Assembly (NCBI GenBank): GCA_965220965.1
Contig: OZ244852.1
Location: forward strand, 1,408,001-1,472,000
Reading direction: 5' to 3'
Source of the DNA: Candidatus Marinacidobacterium sp.
GTDB taxonomy: Bacteria; Acidobacteriota; Vicinamibacteria; Marinacidobacterales; Marinacidobacteraceae
DNA length: 64,000 nucleotides
This document shows, piece after piece, positions 18,716-32,823 of the stretch (the first letter of the stretch is position 1; every line of letters begins with the position of its first letter). The notes under the pieces were generated by a model that did not search any database, was not told the origin of the DNA, and was given only the letters and a program-made list of their open reading frames with translations. The translations under genes and the position numbers were made by a program.

Positions 18716-22537
<3,822 letters not shown>

Positions 22538-22624: not shown

Positions 22625-24415
22625 ATGCGCCGGCCCGGCTCGTACTGCCCTCTCCCGCAGATCGGATCGTCCGGGATCCTGATCGCCGCAGCGGCGCTTT
22701 CCCTGTCTTGTGGAGAAGGGGGTTCTCCCACTGCTACGCCCACGTCGCCCGCCGCGCCGGCGACCCCGCCGGTCCTGACGCTCGAGATCCCGCCTCTCGA
22801 GCGGACGGAGTACCTCGTCGGCATGGTGGACCGGTTGCCGGACGCGGGAGCCGTGACCTGGACCTCCTCGAACGCGGATGTGCTCGAAGTTCTGCCAAAC
22901 GGCCGCTTCCTGGCGCGGGGCCCGGGCGAGGCGGAGCTGATCGCCTCCCGGGAGGGGCAGGAGGCGCGCGTCACGCTCTCCGTCACGTCGCCCTACGAGC
23001 GGACCGGAGCACCACGGTTGACCGGCCTGGACATCCTTGGCATTCCCTTCGTCCACGACGGGATCGACACCTTCGAGGGCGTCCTGATCCCCTACGGGAT
23101 GTACGACTACGAGTCCTTCCGGGAGGTTCCTGCTTCCCTGTCATCTGCCGATCCCGACGTCCTGACGGTGGATGACGACGGCGTGATTCGCGTGACCGGC
23201 GTCGGAGAGACCACGATCACAGCGACTTACCAGGGGCACTCGGCGACAACGCCGGTAGCGGTATTGCCGTGGGACGTCATCCGGGATGCGATCAGTCCCG
23301 GGCCAGGGCAGGACGGGTGCGACACGATTTGGGTCACGCCGGGAGTCGCCTTCCCTCCATATCTGGTGGAAGGCACGACGGTCCCCGCGCCGACGTTTGA
23401 GACGTGTTCGGACGGCGCGATCCGAAGAGTTCACGGCGTCCAGCTCGCCTCGTCGGATCCGGCCGTCATCCAGGTCGAACCTGACGGCTTCCTGACGGCA
23501 AGGAGTCCTGGCCGCGCCCGCATCCTCATGTCTTCGGAGCAGGGCCAGGAACAGGGGGGAGAGGCCGAGACGCCACCGATCACCGTTCTTCCCGCCTACG
23601 ACATCACAACACAGGCGCTGACCGAGCGGGCGCACCAGGATCGGCCGGACGACTTCGAGGGGCCCCAGATCCACGTTGTCTACGCGGTCCCCGAAGATGC
23701 GCCGGACCGGGGGCTCGACCTCTCGGGCGCGCTCGAGGAGTCGGTCGCGGCGATCCAGGACTGGATCCGTCAGGACATCGGTTACGAGCTGAACCTGGAC
23801 ACCCACGGCGGACGGCCGGACGTCACGTTCGTGCGACTTCTGACGCCCTACAGCGATTCCTTCTTCGACATCGCTGAAGGCCTGGATCTCGCTCTGGACC
23901 TCCAGCCAGACAAGAAGTACCTCGTGTTTGTCGCCGCGTGGGGAGCTGCGGGCATAGCGGACGACTCGGTCGCCGCCGTTTACCTGGACCGGTACAGCGG
24001 CCTAGGCCTTGTGGAGACCTTTCCGATCGAGTCGGTGTTCAGGATCACGCACCGGGAAACTGTGGCGCTCCATGAAATCCTGCACACCTTCGGAGCGGTG
24101 GCGGAGTGCGCGCCCCACGCGGACGCCAGCTTCCACGTGAACGACACGCCGGCTGACCTCATGTGGCCTTACCTCTCCGAGGATGGGTTTCGTATCGATG
24201 TTGGCCGGGACGACTACTTCGACCACCACGGGGACGACTGCCTCGACACGGCCGACAGCCCCTACTGGCGTCAGGTCACCACCGTGACAACGGACAGTTC
24301 GGCCACCCCCCGCTCTGAAGGGCCTCCAACCCGGACGGCCGCGGTCACGATGGAGGAGCGGATCCGCTCCGTGCTTCACCCCGACCCCACTTTGCGCTGC
24401 GGCCTCCCCCACTGA
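22625..24415 (+). CDS. Ig-like (Big_2) repeat lipoprotein with C-terminal zinc-metalloprotease domain, paralog 1
   Basis: Lipobox LSLSC; WTSSN..V/SSDP Big_2 motifs; HEILH-x16-H, DLM; ends LRCGLPH. Confidence 0.75.
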   Translation: MRRPGSYCPLPQIGSSGILIAAAALSLSCGEGGSPTATPTSPAAPATPPVLTLEIPPLERTEYLVGMVDRLPDAGAVTWTSSNADVLEVLPNGRFLARGPGEAELIASREGQEARVTLSVTSPYERTGAPRLTGLDILGIPFVHDGIDTFEGVLIPYGMYDYESFREVPASLSSADPDVLTVDDDGVIRVTGVGETTITATYQGHSATTPVAVLPWDVIRDAISPGPGQDGCDTIWVTPGVAFPPYLVEGTTVPAPTFETCSDGAIRRVHGVQLASSDPAVIQVEPDGFLTARSPGRARILMSSEQGQEQGGEAETPPITVLPAYDITTQALTERAHQDRPDDFEGPQIHVVYAVPEDAPDRGLDLSGALEESVAAIQDWIRQDIGYELNLDTHGGRPDVTFVRLLTPYSDSFFDIAEGLDLALDLQPDKKYLVFVAAWGAAGIADDSVAAVYLDRYSGLGLVETFPIESVFRITHRETVALHEILHTFGAVAECAPHADASFHVNDTPADLMWPYLSEDGFRIDVGRDDYFDHHGDDCLDTADSPYWRQVTTVTTDSSATPRSEGPPTRTAAVTMEERIRSVLHPDPTLRCGLPH

Positions 24416-24476
24416 GACCGGCGGACGAACGCAAGGCAACAGGGCCAGACCCCGCCGCCAACTCGCCGAGGCGGGT

Positions 24477-24650
24477 GCGGCGGCTCACGGTTTGCTTGCA
24501 CCGAGGCGCGGTCTCGAGAGTGGACGGCGCGCTCCGCGCGCGCTTCGAAGGAGCTCACCGGATGTCCCAACCAGGCTCTCCCAGTCCCCTCGCTCGACGC
24601 GCTTCCCGGCTCGGGGCGCTGGCCGTCACGGCGATCCTCTCCCTGTCCTG
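24477..24650 (+). repeat. Direct repeat copy 1 of the upstream region plus signal peptide (copy 2 at about 26486-26660)
   Basis: Near-identical GCGGCGGCTCACGGTTTGCTTGCACCGAGGCGCGGTCTCGAGAG...GAAGGAGCTCACCGGATGTCCCAACCAGG; boundaries approximate. Confidence 0.85.
24481..24496 (+). promoter_or_regulatory. Possible sigma54 (-24/-12) promoter; second copy at 26490-26505
   Basis: CGGCTCACGGTTTGCT has the exact GG-N10-GC spacing of TGGCACG-N4-TTGCW and lies about 65 nt upstream of the ATG in both copies. Confidence 0.4.
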
Positions 24651-26421
24651 CGGGGATGGCGGCGGTCCGGCGCCGACCCCCGCCGCGCCGGCGACCCCGC
24701 CGGTCCTGGGCCTCGAAATCCCGCGTCCCGAGCGCACCGGGTATGTGGTCGGCATGGTGGACCGGTTGCCGGACGCGCTGGCTCGTTCGGGTGAATCGCT
24801 CCTCGGAACTCCCGGGAATGTGACCTGGACCTCCTCGAACCCGGACATCCTGGAGGTCCTGCCGAACGGCCGCTTCCTCGCGAGAGGCGCAGGCGAAGCG
24901 GAGCTGATCGCCTCCCGGGAAGGGCAGGAGGCGCGCGTCACGCTCTCCGTCACGTCGCCCTACGAGCGGACCGGGGAACCGAAGCTGAACGGCCTGGAGG
25001 TCGCGGGGTACTTCGCGCTGCATGAAGGGATCGGCGTCGTCGAGGAGGCGATCGTCGCCTACGGCGTCTACGACCATGACGTCTTTCGCGAGGTGGCGGC
25101 TTCCTTCTCCTCCCAGGATCCCGACATCGTGACCGTGGACGACAACGGCTCGATCCGCGTCAACGGCCCGGGACGGACCACCCTGACCGCGTCGTACGAG
25201 GGGTTTTCTGCGACAACTCCGGTCCGCGTTCTGACGCGGGAGGAGTTCAGGGACGGCTTTCGTTTCCCGCCCGGGGAGGAAACCCTCTGCGGCCTGTATC
25301 GGACCACTCCGACGGCCTACTTCACGACCTTCCTGGTCGAGGGCATGTCCACGCCGCTGCTCACGTACGAGCTGTGCTCGGACGGCGGCATCCGGAGGGT
25401 CCACGATGTCCGCTGGGACTCGACGGATCGGGAGGTCATCAGGGCGGAGCCCAACGGGTTCCTCACCGGCGTGAGCGCCGGCGAGGCCCACATCGCGCCG
25501 AGGCCGGCCACCTCGCCACCGCCGACTTCCGCCCCGGTCGCGGATGACACCGGCCGTCCACCGATGAGGGTCTATCCCGCCCCCGAACTCACGCCGCAGG
25601 CGCTGACCCGCCGGTCCTACCAGGATCGTCCCGACGACCTCGAGGGGCCTCAGATCCATGTGGTCTACGCCGTCCCGGAAGACGCGCCCGACCGGGCGCT
25701 CGATCTGTCGGGCGCGCTCGAAGACTCGGTCGCCGCCATTCAGGACTGGATCCGGCAGGCCATCGGCTACGAGCTGAACCTGGACACTCACGGCGGACGC
25801 CTCGATGTCACATTCGTGCGCCTGCTCACGGGATACGGCGGGGCCGACGCCTCGTGGCCCGATCTGCTCGACGGGCTGGAGCGGGCGCTTGAACTCCAGG
25901 ACGACAAGACCTACCTGGTGTTCGCGCCCGCTGGCAATGACCTCGCCGGCAAGGCGCAGGGTCCAGTGGGCGCGGTCTTTCTGGAGAGGTACTCCAGCCA
26001 GGGCTGGGGAGCCTTTCTGGACGAACTCCTCCCGCTCGAGACGCCCTTCGGGCTCGCGCGCACCGAGATCACCACCCTCCATGAAATCCTCCACACGTTC
26101 GGGGCCGTTCCGGACTGCGGTGCGAACTGGATGGACGGCAACCACGTAAGCGACTCCTCGACCGACGTGATGTGGGCCGCCGGAACGAGGGCGGGCCGCG
26201 TCCACATCGATGTCGACCGGGACGACTACTTCGGCCACGGCCGGGACGACTGCCTCGACACGGCGGACAGCCCCTACTGGCGTCAGGTCGCCACCGTGAC
26301 GACCGACGCAACGAACGTCTCCCGCACACAGGGTCCGAAACCACCCCCGGTCACGATGGAGGAGCGGATCCGGTCCCTGCTGCACCCCGACCCCACCCTC
26401 CGCTGCGGCCTCCCCCACTGA
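24562..26421 (+). CDS. Ig-like repeat/zinc-metalloprotease lipoprotein, paralog 2
   Basis: AAGGAG SD, ATG 24562, lipobox LSLSC, HEILH-x16-H, DVM; ends LRCGLPH. Confidence 0.75.
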   Translation: MSQPGSPSPLARRASRLGALAVTAILSLSCGDGGGPAPTPAAPATPPVLGLEIPRPERTGYVVGMVDRLPDALARSGESLLGTPGNVTWTSSNPDILEVLPNGRFLARGAGEAELIASREGQEARVTLSVTSPYERTGEPKLNGLEVAGYFALHEGIGVVEEAIVAYGVYDHDVFREVAASFSSQDPDIVTVDDNGSIRVNGPGRTTLTASYEGFSATTPVRVLTREEFRDGFRFPPGEETLCGLYRTTPTAYFTTFLVEGMSTPLLTYELCSDGGIRRVHDVRWDSTDREVIRAEPNGFLTGVSAGEAHIAPRPATSPPPTSAPVADDTGRPPMRVYPAPELTPQALTRRSYQDRPDDLEGPQIHVVYAVPEDAPDRALDLSGALEDSVAAIQDWIRQAIGYELNLDTHGGRLDVTFVRLLTGYGGADASWPDLLDGLERALELQDDKTYLVFAPAGNDLAGKAQGPVGAVFLERYSSQGWGAFLDELLPLETPFGLARTEITTLHEILHTFGAVPDCGANWMDGNHVSDSSTDVMWAAGTRAGRVHIDVDRDDYFGHGRDDCLDTADSPYWRQVATVTTDATNVSRTQGPKPPPVTMEERIRSLLHPDPTLRCGLPH

Positions 26422-26571
26422 AGCCGGCGCGCGATTTGGCCGTTCCGGAGCCAGGACCCCCGCCAGGGGCGCGCCCGCCAGCGCCGCGGCGGCTCACGGT
26501 TTGCTTGCACCGAGGCGCGGTCTCGAGAGCGGACGGCGCGCTCCGCGCGCGCTGTCGAAGGAGCTCACCGG

Positions 26572-28377
26572 ATGTCCCAACCAGGCTCTCCCAGTCCCCT
26601 CGCTCGACGCGCTTCCTGGCTCGGAGCGCTGGCCGTCACCGCGATCCTCACCCTTGCGTGCGAGGACTCGGCGGGACCGCTGCCGACCCCCGCTGCGCCG
26701 ACGTCCCCACCGGCCTCCAGCTTCTACAACCCGCGCCCCGAACGAACCGACTACGTGGTCGGCATGGTCGACCGCCTGCCTGACGCCGGAGGCGTGACAT
26801 GGACCTCTTCCAACCCGGATGTCCTGGCGGTCCTGCCGGGCGGCCGCTTTCTCGCGAGAGGCGCCGGCCAGGCGGATCTGATCGGTTCCGGGGCGAGTCA
26901 GGAGACGCGCGTCACTCTGAGCGTCACCTCACCCTACGACCGGACCGGCGAGCCCCGGCTGACCGGCCTGGAGATCGCGGGCCTTGTCGACTTCCTCCTC
27001 CTGCACGAGCGAGTCGGCGTCGTCGAGGGAGCGGTGGTCGCCTACGGCGTTTACGACCAGGAGGTCTTCCGGGAAGTCGCCGCCACCCTCGAGTCACTGG
27101 ATCCGGATGTCCTGACGGTCGAAAAGGACGGAACGATCCGCGTCAATGCCGCCGGGGAGGTGACGATCACCGCGTCCTTCGGGGAGCTCCTGGTGGCCCA
27201 ACAGATCCGCGTGCAGACCTGGGAAGAGTTAAGCGCGAGCTTCTCGGGAGGCGGGGATGAAGTGGGCGCTCCCGAATGCGGCCTCCTCGCGTTCACTCCG
27301 CTGGGGTCCTCTCCAGCTCTGCTGGTCGAGGGCATGACCGCTCCGCTGCTCGCGTACGAGCTGTGTCGGACGAACGGGGCGATGCGACGGGTCCACCACT
27401 CCGACTTCGTCTCCAGCGATCCCGAGGTCGTCAGGTTCGAACCCGAGGGCCTCGTAGTCGCCGGGCGCCCCGGCGTCGCCTCCTACAGGTCCCATACCTG
27501 GGGCCCGGACGGTCCGGGATTCCCCCTCAAGGTTCTCCCCGCTTTCGAATTCACGGCGGAAGCGCTGAGCCTCCGGTCCTACCAGGACCGTCCGGACGAT
27601 TACGAAGGTCCCCAGATCCATGTCGTCTACGCCGTCCCGGAGAATGTGGCGGACCGGGGGCTGGACCTGTCCGGCAAGCTCGAAAACTCGGTCGCCGCGC
27701 TCCAGGACTGGATCCGGCAAGCCATCGGTTACGAGCTGAACCTGGACACCCACGGCGGACGCCTCGACATCACGTTCGTGCGCCTGCTGACCCCCCTGGG
27801 CGGAGAGGCGACCACCGTGTCCGGCCTGCGCGACGGGCTCGAACGGGCCCTGGGAATCCAGGAAGACAAGAAATACCTGGTGTTCGCGCCAACGCGCCTG
27901 GGCTGGCCCGGCGCGGCGCGGGACCCGATGGGCGCGGTCTTTCTCGACCCGTACCTCGGCGCTTCCCGTGGAGAGATCTTCGATCAGTTCGCTCCGCTCG
28001 AGTCGGAGTTCGGGATCACCCGAACCGAAACATCAGCGCTCCGCCAACTCCTCCACACCTTCGGGGCCGTCCCGGAATGCGCTCCGAACCGGGGGAGAGG
28101 CAACTCTGTGAACGACTCGGCCGACGATCTGATGGCGTCAGGCTCCGGGTCTCGCATCGATGTCGGCCGGGACGACTACTTCGGCCACGGCCGGGAGGAC
28201 TGCCTCGACACCGCGAACAGCCCCTACTGGCGCCAGGTCGCCAACGTCACGACGGACAGCTCGGCCGCTTCACGCGCTGAAGAAGGCCACGGCGGGACGG
28301 TCCCGATCACGTTGGAGCAGCAGATCCGCTCCCTGATGGCCAGTGACCGTTACCTACGCCACGCCCTCACTCGCTGA
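26572..28377 (+). CDS. Ig-like repeat/metalloprotease lipoprotein, paralog 3 (predicted catalytically dead)
   Basis: Lipobox LTLAC; HExxH changed to RQLLH, third His changed to Ser; ends LRHALTR. Confidence 0.75.
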   Translation: MSQPGSPSPLARRASWLGALAVTAILTLACEDSAGPLPTPAAPTSPPASSFYNPRPERTDYVVGMVDRLPDAGGVTWTSSNPDVLAVLPGGRFLARGAGQADLIGSGASQETRVTLSVTSPYDRTGEPRLTGLEIAGLVDFLLLHERVGVVEGAVVAYGVYDQEVFREVAATLESLDPDVLTVEKDGTIRVNAAGEVTITASFGELLVAQQIRVQTWEELSASFSGGGDEVGAPECGLLAFTPLGSSPALLVEGMTAPLLAYELCRTNGAMRRVHHSDFVSSDPEVVRFEPEGLVVAGRPGVASYRSHTWGPDGPGFPLKVLPAFEFTAEALSLRSYQDRPDDYEGPQIHVVYAVPENVADRGLDLSGKLENSVAALQDWIRQAIGYELNLDTHGGRLDITFVRLLTPLGGEATTVSGLRDGLERALGIQEDKKYLVFAPTRLGWPGAARDPMGAVFLDPYLGASRGEIFDQFAPLESEFGITRTETSALRQLLHTFGAVPECAPNRGRGNSVNDSADDLMASGSGSRIDVGRDDYFGHGREDCLDTANSPYWRQVANVTTDSSAASRAEEGHGGTVPITLEQQIRSLMASDRYLRHALTR

Positions 28378-28383
28378 GCCGCC

Positions 28384-30204
28384 GTGAACCTCCACAGCAC
28401 AGGATCCGCGACGCTCTGCCGGATCCGGCTCGCCTCCTCATTCGGCGTCCTGATGGCGGCCGCCCTCTCCCTCTCCTGCGAAGGCTCGGGGGGGACGGGC
28501 CAGCTCGTCGCCACGCCGACCTCTCCGGCGCCATCCACCCTCGAGATCGTGGCCGAGCGCACGGAGTACCTCGTCGGGATGGTGGACCGGCTGCCCGACG
28601 CGGAAGGCGCTACATGGACCTCTTCGAACCCGGACATCGTGGAAGTCCTGCCGGGCGAGCGCTTCCTCGCGAGAGGCGCGGGCGCGGCGGATCTGATCGC
28701 CTCCCGGGAAGGTCAGGAAGCGCGCGTCACGCTCTCGGTCACGTCGCCCTATGACCGAACCGGCGAACCGAGGTTGACCGGCCTGGAAGTCCTGGGCCTG
28801 CCCGTCCTCCACGACGAAATCGTCGCCTTGGAGGACGCCGTGAAGGTCTACGGCATCTACAACCATCAGACCCTTCAGGAGGTCCCCGCCGCACTGTCGT
28901 CCGCGGATCCGGATGTCCTGACGGTGGACGACGATGGAACGATCCACGTCATGGGGGTTGGCGCAACCACGGTCACGGCGTCGTACGAAGGACACGCGAC
29001 CTCAAGACGGTTCGGCGTCACAACCCGGGAGAAGTCGCGGGCGGCGCTTGTCGACAATCTCGGGGAGGGCTTCGACTGCGGCTTGGTTGCACACTTGGCT
29101 CCGTCATGGGCGGCTCGCCACATGATGCAGGGAATGACCGTGCCCTTTGTCCTTACGGAAATGTGCGTGGACGGGACGATCCGGAGGACTCGCGACGTCC
29201 GCCTTGCGTCCACGAATCCCGAGGTCATCGAAGTCGGTCCGGGCGGCTTCCTCACCGCCAAACACCCCGGCCAGGCCACCGTTGAACCACTCCAGGCGGG
29301 CATCGGGATCCTCGACCAACCGACCGGCCAGTCCGGCTTCGGAGTCTTCACGGTCCTCCCCGAGTTCGAGTTCACGCCCGAGGCGCTCAGCCAGCGGTCC
29401 TACCAGGACCGCCCCGACGACTACGAGGGTCCGCAGATCCATGTCGTCTATGCCGTGCCCGAAGACGTGGCGGACCGCGGGCTGGATCTCTCCGGCCAAC
29501 TCGAGGCCTCGTTCGCGTCGGTCCAGAACTGGATCTGGCAGGCGATCGGCTACCAGCTCAACCTGGACACCTACGGCGGGCGGCCGGACATCACCTTCGT
29601 CCGCATGCTGACTCCCCATGGAAGTGTTGAGGATTCCTTCCAGGACCTGCTCGACGGGCTGGACCGGGCGATGGGGCTCCAGAGGGACAAGAAGTACCTC
29701 GTCTTTGCTCCCGTGTGGTCCTATCTTCTCGGCAAGGCGAGCGTGCAGGAAGGCGTGGGCGCGGTCTATCTGGACAGACACATGAGTATGGCCTGGGGCG
29801 CCCACCTGGACAATTTCTTCCCAGTCGAATCGGAGTTCGACATCACTGGCGGTGAAAGGACGGCGCTCCACGAACTCCTCCACACGTTCGGCGCCGTCGC
29901 CGGGTGCGCACCCAACTTCGACGGCTCCTCCCACGTAGACGACGCGCCGGACGACGTGATGTGGGCAGGTTCGGGTTTCCGCATCGACGTCGGTCGGGAT
30001 GACTACTTCGGCCATGGGCGGGACGACTGCCTCGACACCGCCGACAGCCCTTTCTGGCGTCAGGTCGCCACCCTCACGACCCACGCCTCGGCCACACGTC
30101 GCATCAACAGCCCGGAAGACAAAAGGGCCATAGCCAATATGGAGGCGCAAATCCTCTCCCTGTTCGGGCCCGACCCTTATCTGCGCTGCGCTCTCCCCCA
30201 CTGA
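28384..30204 (+). CDS. Ig-like repeat/zinc-metalloprotease lipoprotein, paralog 4
   Basis: Lipobox LSLSC; HELLH-x16-H, DVM; ends LRCALPH. Confidence 0.75.
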   Translation: MNLHSTGSATLCRIRLASSFGVLMAAALSLSCEGSGGTGQLVATPTSPAPSTLEIVAERTEYLVGMVDRLPDAEGATWTSSNPDIVEVLPGERFLARGAGAADLIASREGQEARVTLSVTSPYDRTGEPRLTGLEVLGLPVLHDEIVALEDAVKVYGIYNHQTLQEVPAALSSADPDVLTVDDDGTIHVMGVGATTVTASYEGHATSRRFGVTTREKSRAALVDNLGEGFDCGLVAHLAPSWAARHMMQGMTVPFVLTEMCVDGTIRRTRDVRLASTNPEVIEVGPGGFLTAKHPGQATVEPLQAGIGILDQPTGQSGFGVFTVLPEFEFTPEALSQRSYQDRPDDYEGPQIHVVYAVPEDVADRGLDLSGQLEASFASVQNWIWQAIGYQLNLDTYGGRPDITFVRMLTPHGSVEDSFQDLLDGLDRAMGLQRDKKYLVFAPVWSYLLGKASVQEGVGAVYLDRHMSMAWGAHLDNFFPVESEFDITGGERTALHELLHTFGAVAGCAPNFDGSSHVDDAPDDVMWAGSGFRIDVGRDDYFGHGRDDCLDTADSPFWRQVATLTTHASATRRINSPEDKRAIANMEAQILSLFGPDPYLRCALPH

Positions 30205-30210
30205 GCCGCC

Positions 30211-32034
30211 GTGAACCCCCAGAGCTCAGGGTCTGTGATGCTCCGCCGGACCCGGCTGGCCTCCTCACTCGGCGTCCTGATGGCGGCCGCCCTCTCCCTC
30301 TCCTGCGAAGGCTCGGGGGGAACGGGCCAGCTCGTCGCCACCCCGACATCTCCGGCGCCATCCACCCTCGAGATCGTGGCCGAGCGCACGGAGTACCTCG
30401 TCGGGATGGTCGACCGCCTGCCCCAGGTCATCGACCGATCCTCGGAGTACCCGACCAATACGTGGCCGGAGTGGGGATCGATGAACCCCGACATCGTGGA
30501 GATCCTGCCGAACGGCCGGTTCCTGGCGAGGGGTCCCGGCTCGGTGGACTTGATCGCCACCTCCCCTTACCCAGACCAGCAGGCCCGCATCACGCTGGAG
30601 GTCACGTCACCCTACGAACGAACCGGGGAACCAAGGCTGACCGCCGTGGAAATCCTGGGCCCACCCGTCATTCACGACAGGCTCGGCGCCTTCGAGGACG
30701 CCGTGGTCGCCTACGGCATTCGCCACGATCAGACGCTCCGGGAGGTCGCCGCCACGCTCTCGTCGGCGGATCCCGACATCCTGACGGTGGACAACGATGG
30801 AACGATCCACGTCACCGGCGCCGGCGAGACCACTATCAGCGCGTCCTACGAAGGCCACTCGATGACAACGCCGATCGTGGTGTTGACCTGGGAGCAATTC
30901 AACGAACCCTTCCCGCGCATCTACGGGGAACGACAGGACATCGCCTGCAGCCCGGTCCTCTGGACGCCGAATGGATCGACTCCAACTCTTCTGCTCGAAG
31001 GCGTGACCGTCCCGTTGCTCGTGTTCGAGGTATGCCCGGACGGCGCGATGCGCCGGATCCACGATGCCCGTCTCGTCTCCTCGGACCCGGAGATCGTCGA
31101 GGTCGGGCCGGGCGGACTCGTCACCGCCAGGAGGTCAGGACGCGCCGCGCTCAGATACGAGCCGCCCGCGGCGTCGGCCCCGGGCGGCGCCGCAGCGATC
31201 ACGGTCCTTCCCGCGTTCAACGTGACGGCCGAGACGCTCGGTCGCCGGTCGTACCAGGATCGTCCCGACGACTACGAGGGACCCCAGATTCATCTGGTCT
31301 ACGCGGTCCCCGAGGACGTACCGGACCGGGGCCTGGATCTTTCCGGAGAGATCGAGGACTCGGTCGCGGTCGTGCAGCACTGGATCCGGCAGGCCATCGG
31401 CTACCAGCTCAACCTGGACACCTACGGCGGACGGCCGGATGTCAGCTTCGTCCGCCTTCTGACTCCCCTCTCCGGAACTCAGGATTCGTTTGCCGACCTG
31501 CTGGATGGGCTGGACCTGGCTCTGGACCTCCAGCAGAACAAGAAATACCTCGTGTTCACACCGGGGCTGAACTACGCCGGCCGGGCCTCGCGGCTGGTGA
31601 GCGCGGTTTTCCTCGACCGGTACGTGGGCGCCACCTGGGGGGACTTCGTGGACCATCGCCTCCCACGCGACCTGAAGTTCGGCGTCACCAGCACCGAGAT
31701 CGTGGCGCTCCATGAGCTTTTTCACACGTTCGGCGCCGCCGCCGAGTGCGCCCCCAACTTCGAGGCCTATCACGTCAACGACACCCTCGACGATGTGATG
31801 ACGCGGGGACAACAGATCGATTTTGGGAGGGACGACTACTTCGGCCACGGGCGAGCTGACTGCACGGACACCGCGAACAGCCCCTACTGGCGGCGCGTCA
31901 CCAGCGTCGCGACAGACGCCGCGGCAACCCCCCGCTCCGAACGCCCCGACCAGACGGCCCCGGTCACGATGGAGGAGCAGCTCCGCTCCCTGTTTGTCCC
32001 GGACCCCACCCTGCGCTGCGGCGTCCCCCACTGA
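30211..32034 (+). CDS. Ig-like repeat/zinc-metalloprotease lipoprotein, paralog 5
   Basis: N-terminus nearly identical to paralog 4; HELFH-x15-H, DVM; ends LRCGVPH. Confidence 0.75.
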   Translation: MNPQSSGSVMLRRTRLASSLGVLMAAALSLSCEGSGGTGQLVATPTSPAPSTLEIVAERTEYLVGMVDRLPQVIDRSSEYPTNTWPEWGSMNPDIVEILPNGRFLARGPGSVDLIATSPYPDQQARITLEVTSPYERTGEPRLTAVEILGPPVIHDRLGAFEDAVVAYGIRHDQTLREVAATLSSADPDILTVDNDGTIHVTGAGETTISASYEGHSMTTPIVVLTWEQFNEPFPRIYGERQDIACSPVLWTPNGSTPTLLLEGVTVPLLVFEVCPDGAMRRIHDARLVSSDPEIVEVGPGGLVTARRSGRAALRYEPPAASAPGGAAAITVLPAFNVTAETLGRRSYQDRPDDYEGPQIHLVYAVPEDVPDRGLDLSGEIEDSVAVVQHWIRQAIGYQLNLDTYGGRPDVSFVRLLTPLSGTQDSFADLLDGLDLALDLQQNKKYLVFTPGLNYAGRASRLVSAVFLDRYVGATWGDFVDHRLPRDLKFGVTSTEIVALHELFHTFGAAAECAPNFEAYHVNDTLDDVMTRGQQIDFGRDDYFGHGRADCTDTANSPYWRRVTSVATDAAATPRSERPDQTAPVTMEEQLRSLFVPDPTLRCGVPH

Positions 32035-32076: not shown

Positions 32077-32730
32077 TCAGAAGGCCGCGAGGCCCAGCGA
32101 AGTCCGGAGCGCCGGAGAGTTCACGATGAGCTCTCCCAGCTCGGTCATCGCGTTCCCGATGGCGGTCTCGACCGCCTGCGCCACGACCTGCGCGCCCTCG
32201 GAGCACCTGCTCCCCCCGCCCGTCTGCACAGAGCTTCCCTGCACGAAATCGCGGATCTGGAGGCCGTCGGCGGTGAATGCCGACACCTGCATCGCGACAT
32301 CGGCGCCCGCCTCGAATCCCCGGAAGAAGCCGGTGCTCACCCCCACTCCGAAGCTGTCGACCCGCACCACGATGACCGCGCCCAGACGACGCGCCTCCAT
32401 CTCCTCGCGGTTCAGCGGCGCCGGAGTGTGCTCCAGTTTCCGGACGAGGCGCTCGAGCGTGCCGACGACCGACGCCTCGAACGACTCCCGCGCGTCCACC
32501 GGGTAGCTGTTGTTCGCGCAGGTGAAGTCCGCAAAGTCGGGGATGCGCGCCTCGAACAGCATCTGGTCGGCGTCCACGAAGACCGCCGCGTCCACCGGCA
32601 GCCCGGCCTCGAAGGCCAGGACCTCGTAGGACGGCGTCGGCTGGACCAGCACGGCGTGGGAACACGAAGCGGCGCCCAGCGCCAGAACAGCGCCGAGAGC
32701 GAACGGAAGCTGACTGCGCTTACGGGTCAC
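32077..32730 (-). CDS. Hypothetical lipoprotein
   Basis: GGAGG SD before GTG 32730; signal peptide ending in the lipobox-like AASC. Confidence 0.65.
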   Translation of the reverse strand: MTRKRSQLPFALGAVLALGAASCSHAVLVQPTPSYEVLAFEAGLPVDAAVFVDADQMLFEARIPDFADFTCANNSYPVDARESFEASVVGTLERLVRKLEHTPAPLNREEMEARRLGAVIVVRVDSFGVGVSTGFFRGFEAGADVAMQVSAFTADGLQIRDFVQGSSVQTGGGSRCSEGAQVVAQAVETAIGNAMTELGELIVNSPALRTSLGLAAF

Positions 32731-32823
32731 GGTGCTTCTCCTCCCTTCGCGGGATCGGTGGGGCGACGGGTCATCTTCGCCGCATGAGTCCAACGCAAGC
32801 AAACCAGGGACCGGACCGCCAGG

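Follow-up and report, generated by a model that had tools for sequence, protein, structure and literature searches.

Four proteins encoded in a tandem array on a 64,000-nucleotide stretch of the genome of Candidatus Marinacidobacterium sp. (contig OZ244852.1, positions 1,408,001 to 1,472,000; hereafter the window, whose own numbering is used for coordinates throughout) end in a short, conserved tail in which a single cysteine residue may act as a latch on the zinc ion of the preceding metzincin-fold domain. The array consists of five paralogous open reading frames (ORFs), all on the + strand, and the last ten residues of their products are DPTLRCGLPH, DPTLRCGLPH, DRYLRHALTR, DPYLRCALPH and DPTLRCGVPH for paralogues 1 to 5, respectively, exactly as in an earlier note on this DNA, which had reported four of five proteins ending in DPxLRC(G/A)(L/V)PH-stop. 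A C-terminal cysteine latch on the zinc is the best-supported reading of these tails, and we give it somewhat more than even credence. According to this proposal the tail, after a flexible linker, would fold back into the active-site cleft from the C-terminus, where the thiolate of the lone Cys would take the fourth coordination position of the catalytic zinc. The bound tail would thereby hold the enzyme closed, as the PRCGxPD motif of matrix metalloproteinases (MMPs) or the CG motif of promirolysin does, but from the C-terminus, and release would come about by cutting of the variable linker or by modification or oxidation of the thiol.

Paralogue 1 (22625-24415; 596 residues) illustrates the architecture, with a signal peptide of lipoprotein type ending in LSLSC (22625-22711, the last residue being Cys29), an immunoglobulin (Ig)-like region, the metzincin-fold domain, a linker and the Cys tail. 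The catalytic-type domain extends from RPDD to SPYWR (residues 340-549; 23642-24271), corresponds to a block conserved family-wide, and contains the zinc-binding and catalytic motif HEILH (24071-24085) as well as a candidate third zinc ligand, His504 (24134-24136). It is followed by a linker rich in Thr, Ser and Pro with the helix-like segment MEERIRSVL (24272-24382) and by the tail itself (24383-24412), which aligns with the clade consensus D-W-P-x-R-C-G through Cys592 (24398-24400). Alignments are referred to below as A1 (the five paralogues), A2 (144 sequences) and A5 (114 diverse family members), and domain columns such as H164 are numbered after a construct comprising residues 320-596 of paralogue 1 (277 residues), so that H185 corresponds to His504. 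The variable linker and helix-like segment that the earlier note had placed ahead of the tail are both recognizable, the former in A1 and the latter as a helix at residues 257-265 of the structural model of this construct, with a predicted local distance difference test (pLDDT) score of only about 55.

All five proteins have a hydrophobic N-terminus ending in LSLSC or LTLAC, and a lipobox-like pattern, typically L-S/A-C-G-G-G, is found by regular expression in 91 of 109 homologues of the tail-bearing clade; judged by the lipobox, which is present in all five, the proteins are bacterial-lipoprotein-like. Together with the Big_2 Ig-like matches found in all five by Pfam (at residues 173-204 in paralogue 1) and the HExxH-type domain, these N-termini bear out the original description of the array as tandem lipoproteins. 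The cysteine inventory (positions 8, 29, 232, 261, 495, 539 and 592 in paralogue 1; 30, 243, 272, 519, 564 and 615 in paralogue 2; 30, 236, 265, 503 and 544 in paralogue 3; 12, 32, 232, 261, 508, 549 and 602 in paralogue 4; and 32, 246, 275, 513, 551 and 603 in paralogue 5) comprises the lipobox Cys, one further signal-peptide Cys in paralogues 1 and 4, two conserved pairs and, in four of the five, an odd Cys in the tail, in agreement with what had been noted from the sequence. The two pairs would form disulfides, an assignment based on conservation (C176 in 131/144 and C220 in 129/144 sequences).

Conservation of the tail and its relation to the zinc site

A survey of genomes with the window domain as query (E, expectation value, <=1e-5) located the domain in all 24 other genomes of the same bacterial family, in none of 16 genomes from two sister families of the order, and in one of 300 other genomes sampled evenly from the phylum. 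Among the 31 homologous ORFs in the 24 same-family genomes, 30 end in ...V-R-[IL]-P-x-x-[DE]-[WR]-P-x-R-C-[GAE]..., the lone tail-less homologue (L014) stopping early, with no tail motif downstream of its stop. A profile search started from tail-bearing proteins gave a list of 120 clade members, a few of which carry Acidobacteriota metagenome-assembled genomes as their source label, and the tail Cys is present in 117 of these; the two counts are not independent, because the sets overlap and their members are related. Weighted frequencies in the tail are 0.97 for C, 0.92 for R, 0.88 for P, 0.88 for D and 0.64 for W, following a linker that is highly variable, and the DDYF motif and the Cys are separated by 38-46 residues in the 112 sequences measured. 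Such conservation is far beyond chance and, at the level of the alignments, speaks for strong purifying selection on the tail Cys.

Compared with the clade consensus, D-W-P-x-R-C-G-x(-x)-H, the window version, D-P-x-L-R-C-G/A-L/V-P-H, is derived, with a linker about 15 residues longer and the helix-like MEERIRS insert. A sixth, shorter paralogue (L006; G000:C1:801829-805560, ORF 1033-2265) lies elsewhere in the genome and encodes 410 residues with one Ig-like domain. Its C-terminus reads ...SIVIPPADRPFLCDAH, and its tail is of the ancestral type, ...IPPADRPFLCDAH, the form common to all searched genomes of the bacterial family.

A conserved Cys motif placed at the very C-terminal end of proteins that are exported recalls the Cys-containing sorting or processing signals of the MYXO-CTERM or JDVT-CTERM kind. 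These tails, however, have no hydrophobic helix or basic cluster after the Cys: in 76 of the 112 measured sequences the chain ends 3-6 residues beyond it, and extensions that run longer are acidic or Pro-rich; no NCBIfam CTERM model is matched at E<=1, and an N-terminal lipid-anchor signal is already present, all of which makes a sorting function very improbable. The tail Cys might also combine with a near-terminal His to bind a second metal or another cofactor, independently of the catalytic site, as a His stands 3-5 residues after the Cys in the four intact tails of the window and likewise in the commonest clade tails, and the last aligned position has His at a weighted frequency of 0.40. 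This His is nevertheless not conserved, many tails ending in E, R or long acidic or Pro-rich extensions, and two ligands alone would make a weak site. The joint loss of the tail Cys and catalytic His residues in paralogue 3, described below, further argues against independence, and we regard a second metal site as distinctly improbable.

The relation between tail and zinc site is illustrated by paralogue 3 (26572-28377; 601 residues), a likely pseudo-enzyme with an intact ORF, in which the HExxH motif is replaced by RQLLH (28042-28056), the third His by Ser (28105-28107) and the tail by the degenerate sequence DRYLRHALTR (28345-28374). This is the only clade sequence seen in which zinc His residues are replaced (H to R and H to S, in addition to E to Q), and its tail Cys has become His. 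Paralogue 3 differs at five of the eight tail columns at which the other four paralogues agree, against an overall rate of 34/228 (0.149), which is only slightly above the private substitution rates of its siblings (0.089-0.134); a binomial calculation by hand gives a value of about 0.003 for this decay of the tail. Set against that background, the five differences in eight columns suggest that the constraint on the tail lapsed together with the zinc site. With two zinc ligands, the catalytic Glu and also the tail Cys gone, paralogue 3 is probably a non-catalytic derivative.

A different combination is found in nine clade members in which the catalytic Glu is replaced (by Gln in HQ, six cases, Gly in HG, two cases, and Val in HV, one case; P0103, P0262, P0270, P0282, P0284, P0288, P0290, P0293 and P0298, with loci L028 and L032 also in this group), all of which keep the three His residues and the tail Cys. 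In many of these Glu-less tails the Cys is followed by a further stretch that is acidic or rich in Pro (CGLLPRPAE...). Both patterns, the loss of His and Cys together in paralogue 3 and their joint retention in Glu-less members, fit what a bond between Cys and zinc would predict.

A bond of another kind would be an intermolecular disulfide, formed off the zinc with a second copy, a partner or an envelope protein under the oxidising conditions of the cell envelope. Such a role would suit a Cys that is odd and exposed and belongs to an exported protein, and it would suit the low confidence with which AlphaFold2 (AF2) places the tail of paralogue 1, but the disulfide leaves unexplained both the decay of the tail exactly in the paralogue without zinc His residues and the conserved D-W-P-x-R flank with its fixed spacing; with no conserved partner gene seen among the flanking genes, we consider this explanation rather unlikely.

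For alignment A4, with an effective number of about 51 sequences, mutual information computed across tail and domain columns gave top pairs that involve variable linker positions; these look like phylogenetic noise and were rejected as a coupling signal. In a comparison of 111 tail-bearing with 200 other sequences, 8 of the top 25 clade-specific residues fall within residues 143-170, around the active-site helix, an observation that is not counted as evidence because the tail-bearing set is a single clade.

Structural models of the tail differ between paralogues. The AF2 model of the mature sixth paralogue, computed from a tail-rich alignment of 131 sequences, has a pLDDT of 89.9 overall and of 66-71 over the last 30 residues, only linker residues 336-341 falling below 50. 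In this model DSSP assigns Cys357-Ala359 and residues 345-346 to strand or bridge. It also marks bridge residues without an equivalent in the paralogue 1 model, namely 249 and 252-253, in the loop that leads into the active-site helix, and 293, beside the conserved Met. Read indirectly, from the DSSP strings of the zinc-free models, these assignments hint that AF2 lays the tail of the sixth paralogue along the cleft. A complex prediction with the paralogue 1 domain (construct residues 1-232), tail (233-277) and zinc scored 0.02 twice, against a mark of 0.32, with the fold of the partner uncertain, and this score counts neither for nor against binding of the tail.

Several observations weigh against a simple latch. 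AF2 places the tail of paralogue 1 at a pLDDT of only 45-57. Two clade members (P0291 and P0294) have Ser in place of the tail Cys with the rest of the motif and HExxH intact, and a third (P0011, identical with L014) has a truncated tail and an intact HExxH, so the tail is not indispensable, and most of the wider family of 1430 clusters lacks such a tail altogether. The combined loss of zinc His residues and Cys is one event only. The earlier note had asked for a test of whether HExxH and the tail Cys co-vary, and to this test belong the co-loss in paralogue 3, a single case, the nine Glu-less members that keep the three His residues and the Cys, and the two Cys-to-Ser proteins and the tail-less one, each with HExxH. 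There is also no recognisable dedicated activator, inhibitor or sorting enzyme among the flanking genes, and no conserved cleavage site in the linker.

The retention of the tail by Glu-less variants points, moreover, to some function of the zinc-thiolate link, structural or otherwise, beyond pure latency. It would also suit a different arrangement, in which the tail Cys would be a permanent fourth ligand, completing a closed His3-Cys site that staples down the C-terminus and making of these proteins stable, non-zymogen binding or redox-switch modules. Agreeing with such a staple are the three His residues and Cys kept in all nine Glu-less variants, the linker without a conserved processing site, and the closeness of the Cys to the chain end in 76 of 112 sequences. 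We consider it unlikely, since the catalytic Glu is kept in 111/120 clade members and in 138/144 family members, which argues that most are active enzymes that would need an open fourth site. On the fuller and more tentative account set out at the end, these Glu-less proteins may have taken on a new use as binding modules with a zinc-thiolate link, gated by redox state or by cleavage.

A metzincin-fold domain with a probable, non-canonical third ligand

Near-invariant columns among the 144 sequences of A2 are H164, E165, H168, G171, C176, H185, D192, M194, D206, D210-D211-Y212, C220 and D222. Within this set H164, E165, H168, G171 and M194, that is HExxHxxG followed by Met, are kept in 136-144 of the 144 sequences (H164 in 142, E165 in 138 and H168 in all 144), and the third ligand is off its canonical position. 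In fact, the third His of the HExxHxxGxxH consensus is missing, the sequence being HEILHTFGAVAE, and all five paralogues have Ala, Val or Pro at the +6 position. The most likely zinc ligands are the two His residues of HExxH together with His504, 17 residues beyond HExxH, an assignment suggested by the conservation of H185 in 142/144 sequences and by its replacement with Ser in paralogue 3.

The last ca. 270 residues of the five proteins have no match at E<=1 in the copies of Pfam and NCBIfam searched. Peptidase_M10 in particular is not matched at E<=1 in the five proteins, nor at E<=0.01 among the 114 family members of A5, and Reprolysin is not matched by Pfam in the five; a single one of the 114 has a marginal Reprolysin_5 match (E 0.0098), no other Pfam model covering the domain. 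The accessory domains of these 114 members are adhesin-like (Ig-like, fn3 and InlB B-repeat). Searches of Protein Data Bank (PDB) sequences, whether with a single protein or with the 144-sequence profile, gave nothing significant, the best profile matches being ADAM17 and acutolysin at E of about 0.8. The 30 nearest ESM Atlas clusters are all labelled 'hypothetical protein' and share no common Pfam family, and the nearest named clusters, of Reprolysin_3/4/5, score only 0.90-0.91. A scan of 1.84 billion cluster representatives (clusters at 50% identity, matches covering query residues ca. 14-230) found the domain in 1430 clusters at E<=0.001 and in 747 at E<=1e-10. The domain family is thus large and without a Pfam or NCBIfam model in the copies searched. 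A precomputed label, PF26918.1, stands on a few homologues (P0001, P0003, P0010, P0035, P0255 and P0264); it is unlikely to denote the catalytic domain, because it is attached to 4 of 89 hits, all of which share that domain.

Many family members outside the tail-bearing clade carry other domains after the catalytic domain. A further subgroup (P0028, P0136, P0139, P0145, P0175, P0185, P0186, P0195 and P0231) ends in ...P-P-G-W, often at the extreme C-terminus, and this ending could be a terminal plug of a second kind or could simply belong to the fold.

The fold assignment of the domain derives from its modelled structure. The AF2 model of paralogue 1 residues 320-596 has a pLDDT of 85.6 overall and above 90 over the domain. 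Foldseek matched it to ADAMTS4, snake-venom metalloproteinases, archaemetzincin, fragilysin and OgpA at E of about 2e-4 to 4e-3, with a probability of 0.99-1.0 for the first four. The structural search (VIA) returned 23 chains with Z>=8, of which ranks 1-20 and 22-23 are metzincins by entry title and rank 21 is titled as a chaperone-substrate complex. The highest scores are those of Amuc_1438 (8df2; Z 13.4), OgpA (6z2o; 12.7), archaemetzincin (2x7m; 11.7), ADAM17 (8snm; 11.5) and adamalysin II (10.9), followed by ulilysin (9.4) and mirolysin (8.7), with only 5.5-6.3 for MMP-2, -9, -12 and -20. By its predicted structure the domain is a metzincin fold.

The description 'matrixin-like' in the earlier note is right only in a loose sense and is not upheld as a family label by these results, given the missing Peptidase_M10 match, the missing canonical third His and Z scores for MMPs of 5.5-6.3 against 10.9-13.4 for the nearest folds. 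Matrixin membership was likewise rejected on the position of the propeptide, the N-terminus being a signal peptide followed by Ig-like domains and the RCG motif being C-terminal instead. At the sequence level the searches gave no significant match to the best structural neighbours, and Amuc_1438, OgpA, archaemetzincin and ADAM17 align over 154-179 residues with only 13-18% identity. ADAM17 shows a weak local likeness, HELxHxFGA...ECAPN, that is not significant (E about 0.85), and the non-significant profile alignment to it skips the EHDPDG stretch, which carries the canonical third His. To our knowledge no C-terminal Cys tail is present in Amuc_1438, OgpA, archaemetzincin or ADAM17.

The tandem array and its surroundings

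The remaining members of the array follow paralogue 1 without interruption of strand. Paralogue 2 (24562-26421) has 619 residues from the ATG at 24562, a start supported by homology, the ORF being open from a GTG at 24475; its HEILH motif lies at 26080-26094 and its tail, DPTLRCGLPH, at 26389-26418. Paralogue 4 (28384-30204; 606 residues) carries HELLH at 29869-29883 and DPYLRCALPH at 30172-30201, and paralogue 5 (30211-32034; 607 residues) HELFH at 31711-31725 and DPTLRCGVPH at 32002-32031. Paralogues 2-5 are 54-62% identical to paralogue 1 at the protein level, and the DNA of the array is made up of repeat families with a period of ca. 1.8-2.0 kb. The 5' ends and upstream junctions are 87% alike between paralogues 4 and 5 (28313-28596 versus 30140-30423) and 83% alike between paralogues 2 and 3 (24545-24776 versus 26555-26786), with the gene bodies of these pairs less alike (about 65-81%), and this higher likeness of the 5' ends and junctions suggests pairwise duplication or gene conversion. 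The five-gene array was found in no other searched genome, the genomes of the same genus containing 1-2 matches at 38-48% identity, and the array is therefore a recent, lineage-specific local tandem expansion.

Upstream, the array adjoins a large GH2 beta-galactosidase with a C-terminal F5/8 type C domain (18716-22471, - strand) and, downstream, an ORF of 241 residues (32077-32802, - strand) with a lipoprotein-like N-terminus (...LGAASC) and no Pfam match. Other flanking genes encode a DUF885 protein, an aminotransferase and an amidohydrolase, among others. Because the best fold matches of the catalytic domain are O-glycopeptidases, the GH2 neighbour may be a hint at glycoprotein degradation.

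Relation to known latency mechanisms

In the cysteine switch of MMPs, the Cys of PRCGXPD is described as blocking the catalytic zinc (PMC6949598). The window proteins resemble this system in the lone Cys, which stands in an R-C-G context outside the catalytic domain and is proposed to block the zinc of a metzincin fold, and differ from it in that the tail is located at the extreme C-terminus, whereas the MMP motif is part of an N-terminal prodomain of 70-90 residues. In the pro-segment of promirolysin, the same source describes Arg21 as occupying S1' and Cys23, from a conserved Cys-Gly motif, as blocking the zinc; other metzincin zymogens with short N-terminal pro-segments named there are the astacins, myroilysin and karilysin (PMC6949598). 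Common to the window tails and to the unicellular pappalysins promirolysin and ulilysin are a short, mostly extended segment, a Cys-Gly motif and a nearby Arg, and mirolysin is, moreover, a bacterial metzincin of lipoprotein type according to that account (PMC6949598). The promirolysin segment is, in contrast, N-terminal, with its Arg at Cys-2, whereas the window tail is C-terminal with Arg immediately before the Cys. Sequence similarity of the window domain to mirolysin or ulilysin is not detectable.

The earlier note knew of no described family with this layout, a statement that holds in part. Regulation from the C-terminal side has precedents in yeast Wss1 and in CLCA1, and no C-terminal cysteine switch in a metzincin is described by the papers that the literature searches listed, as judged by titles and the opening parts of abstracts; the phrase 'C-terminal cysteine switch' was itself not found in a full-text search of the literature open without subscription. 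For Wss1, a cysteine switch has been proposed that acts through C226, in the C-terminal part released by self-cleavage, and thiram and APMA (4-aminophenylmercuric acetate) are described as activating this cleavage (PMC4559962). The contact between Cys and zinc is inferred in that work, with no structural proof, and the C226S protein could not be made (PMC4559962). As described there, Wss1 (WLM/minigluzincin-like) shares with the window proteins a regulatory Cys C-terminal to the protease domain, but it is intracellular and eukaryotic, has a different zincin fold, and carries its Cys away from the chain end. CLCA1 is described in a preprint as a metzincin without a prodomain, occluded by a C-terminal inhibitory loop (10.1101/2025.10.18.683246). 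It resembles the window proteins in having a metzincin-type domain without an N-terminal prodomain that is blocked, as we propose for the window proteins, by a downstream segment; the blocker in CLCA1 is, unlike a terminal Cys tail, a loop of a folded inhibitory domain with an autocleavage site.

Latency in metzincins is described in the source cited above for promirolysin as the work of N-terminal pro-segments (PMC6949598), to which CLCA1 is a recent exception (10.1101/2025.10.18.683246). In the window proteins a lipid anchor takes up the N-terminus. With the R-C-G core of the tail, the same solution seems to have been reached independently for a third time, after MMPs and promirolysin, though from the C-terminus. 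We hold more tentatively, and with rather less than even confidence, the fuller account in which a large, undescribed metzincin-fold family has a non-canonical third ligand and a genuine cysteine switch at the C-terminus arose in one of its clades, which occurs in every genome searched from one bacterial family; the R-C-G core of this switch would have converged on the motifs of MMPs and pappalysins.

The finding marks out a large family (1430 clusters) with a metzincin fold and an unusual third ligand, and it comes with natural controls, namely a paralogue in the same array with both zinc site and tail dead, Glu-less variants that keep the tail, and Cys-to-Ser variants. If the fuller account is true, these proteins would represent the first case of metzincin zymogens with a latch at the C-terminus. 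A short C-terminal cysteine latch would show the zinc-thiolate solution, down to its R-C-G core, arising independently from the other end of the chain.

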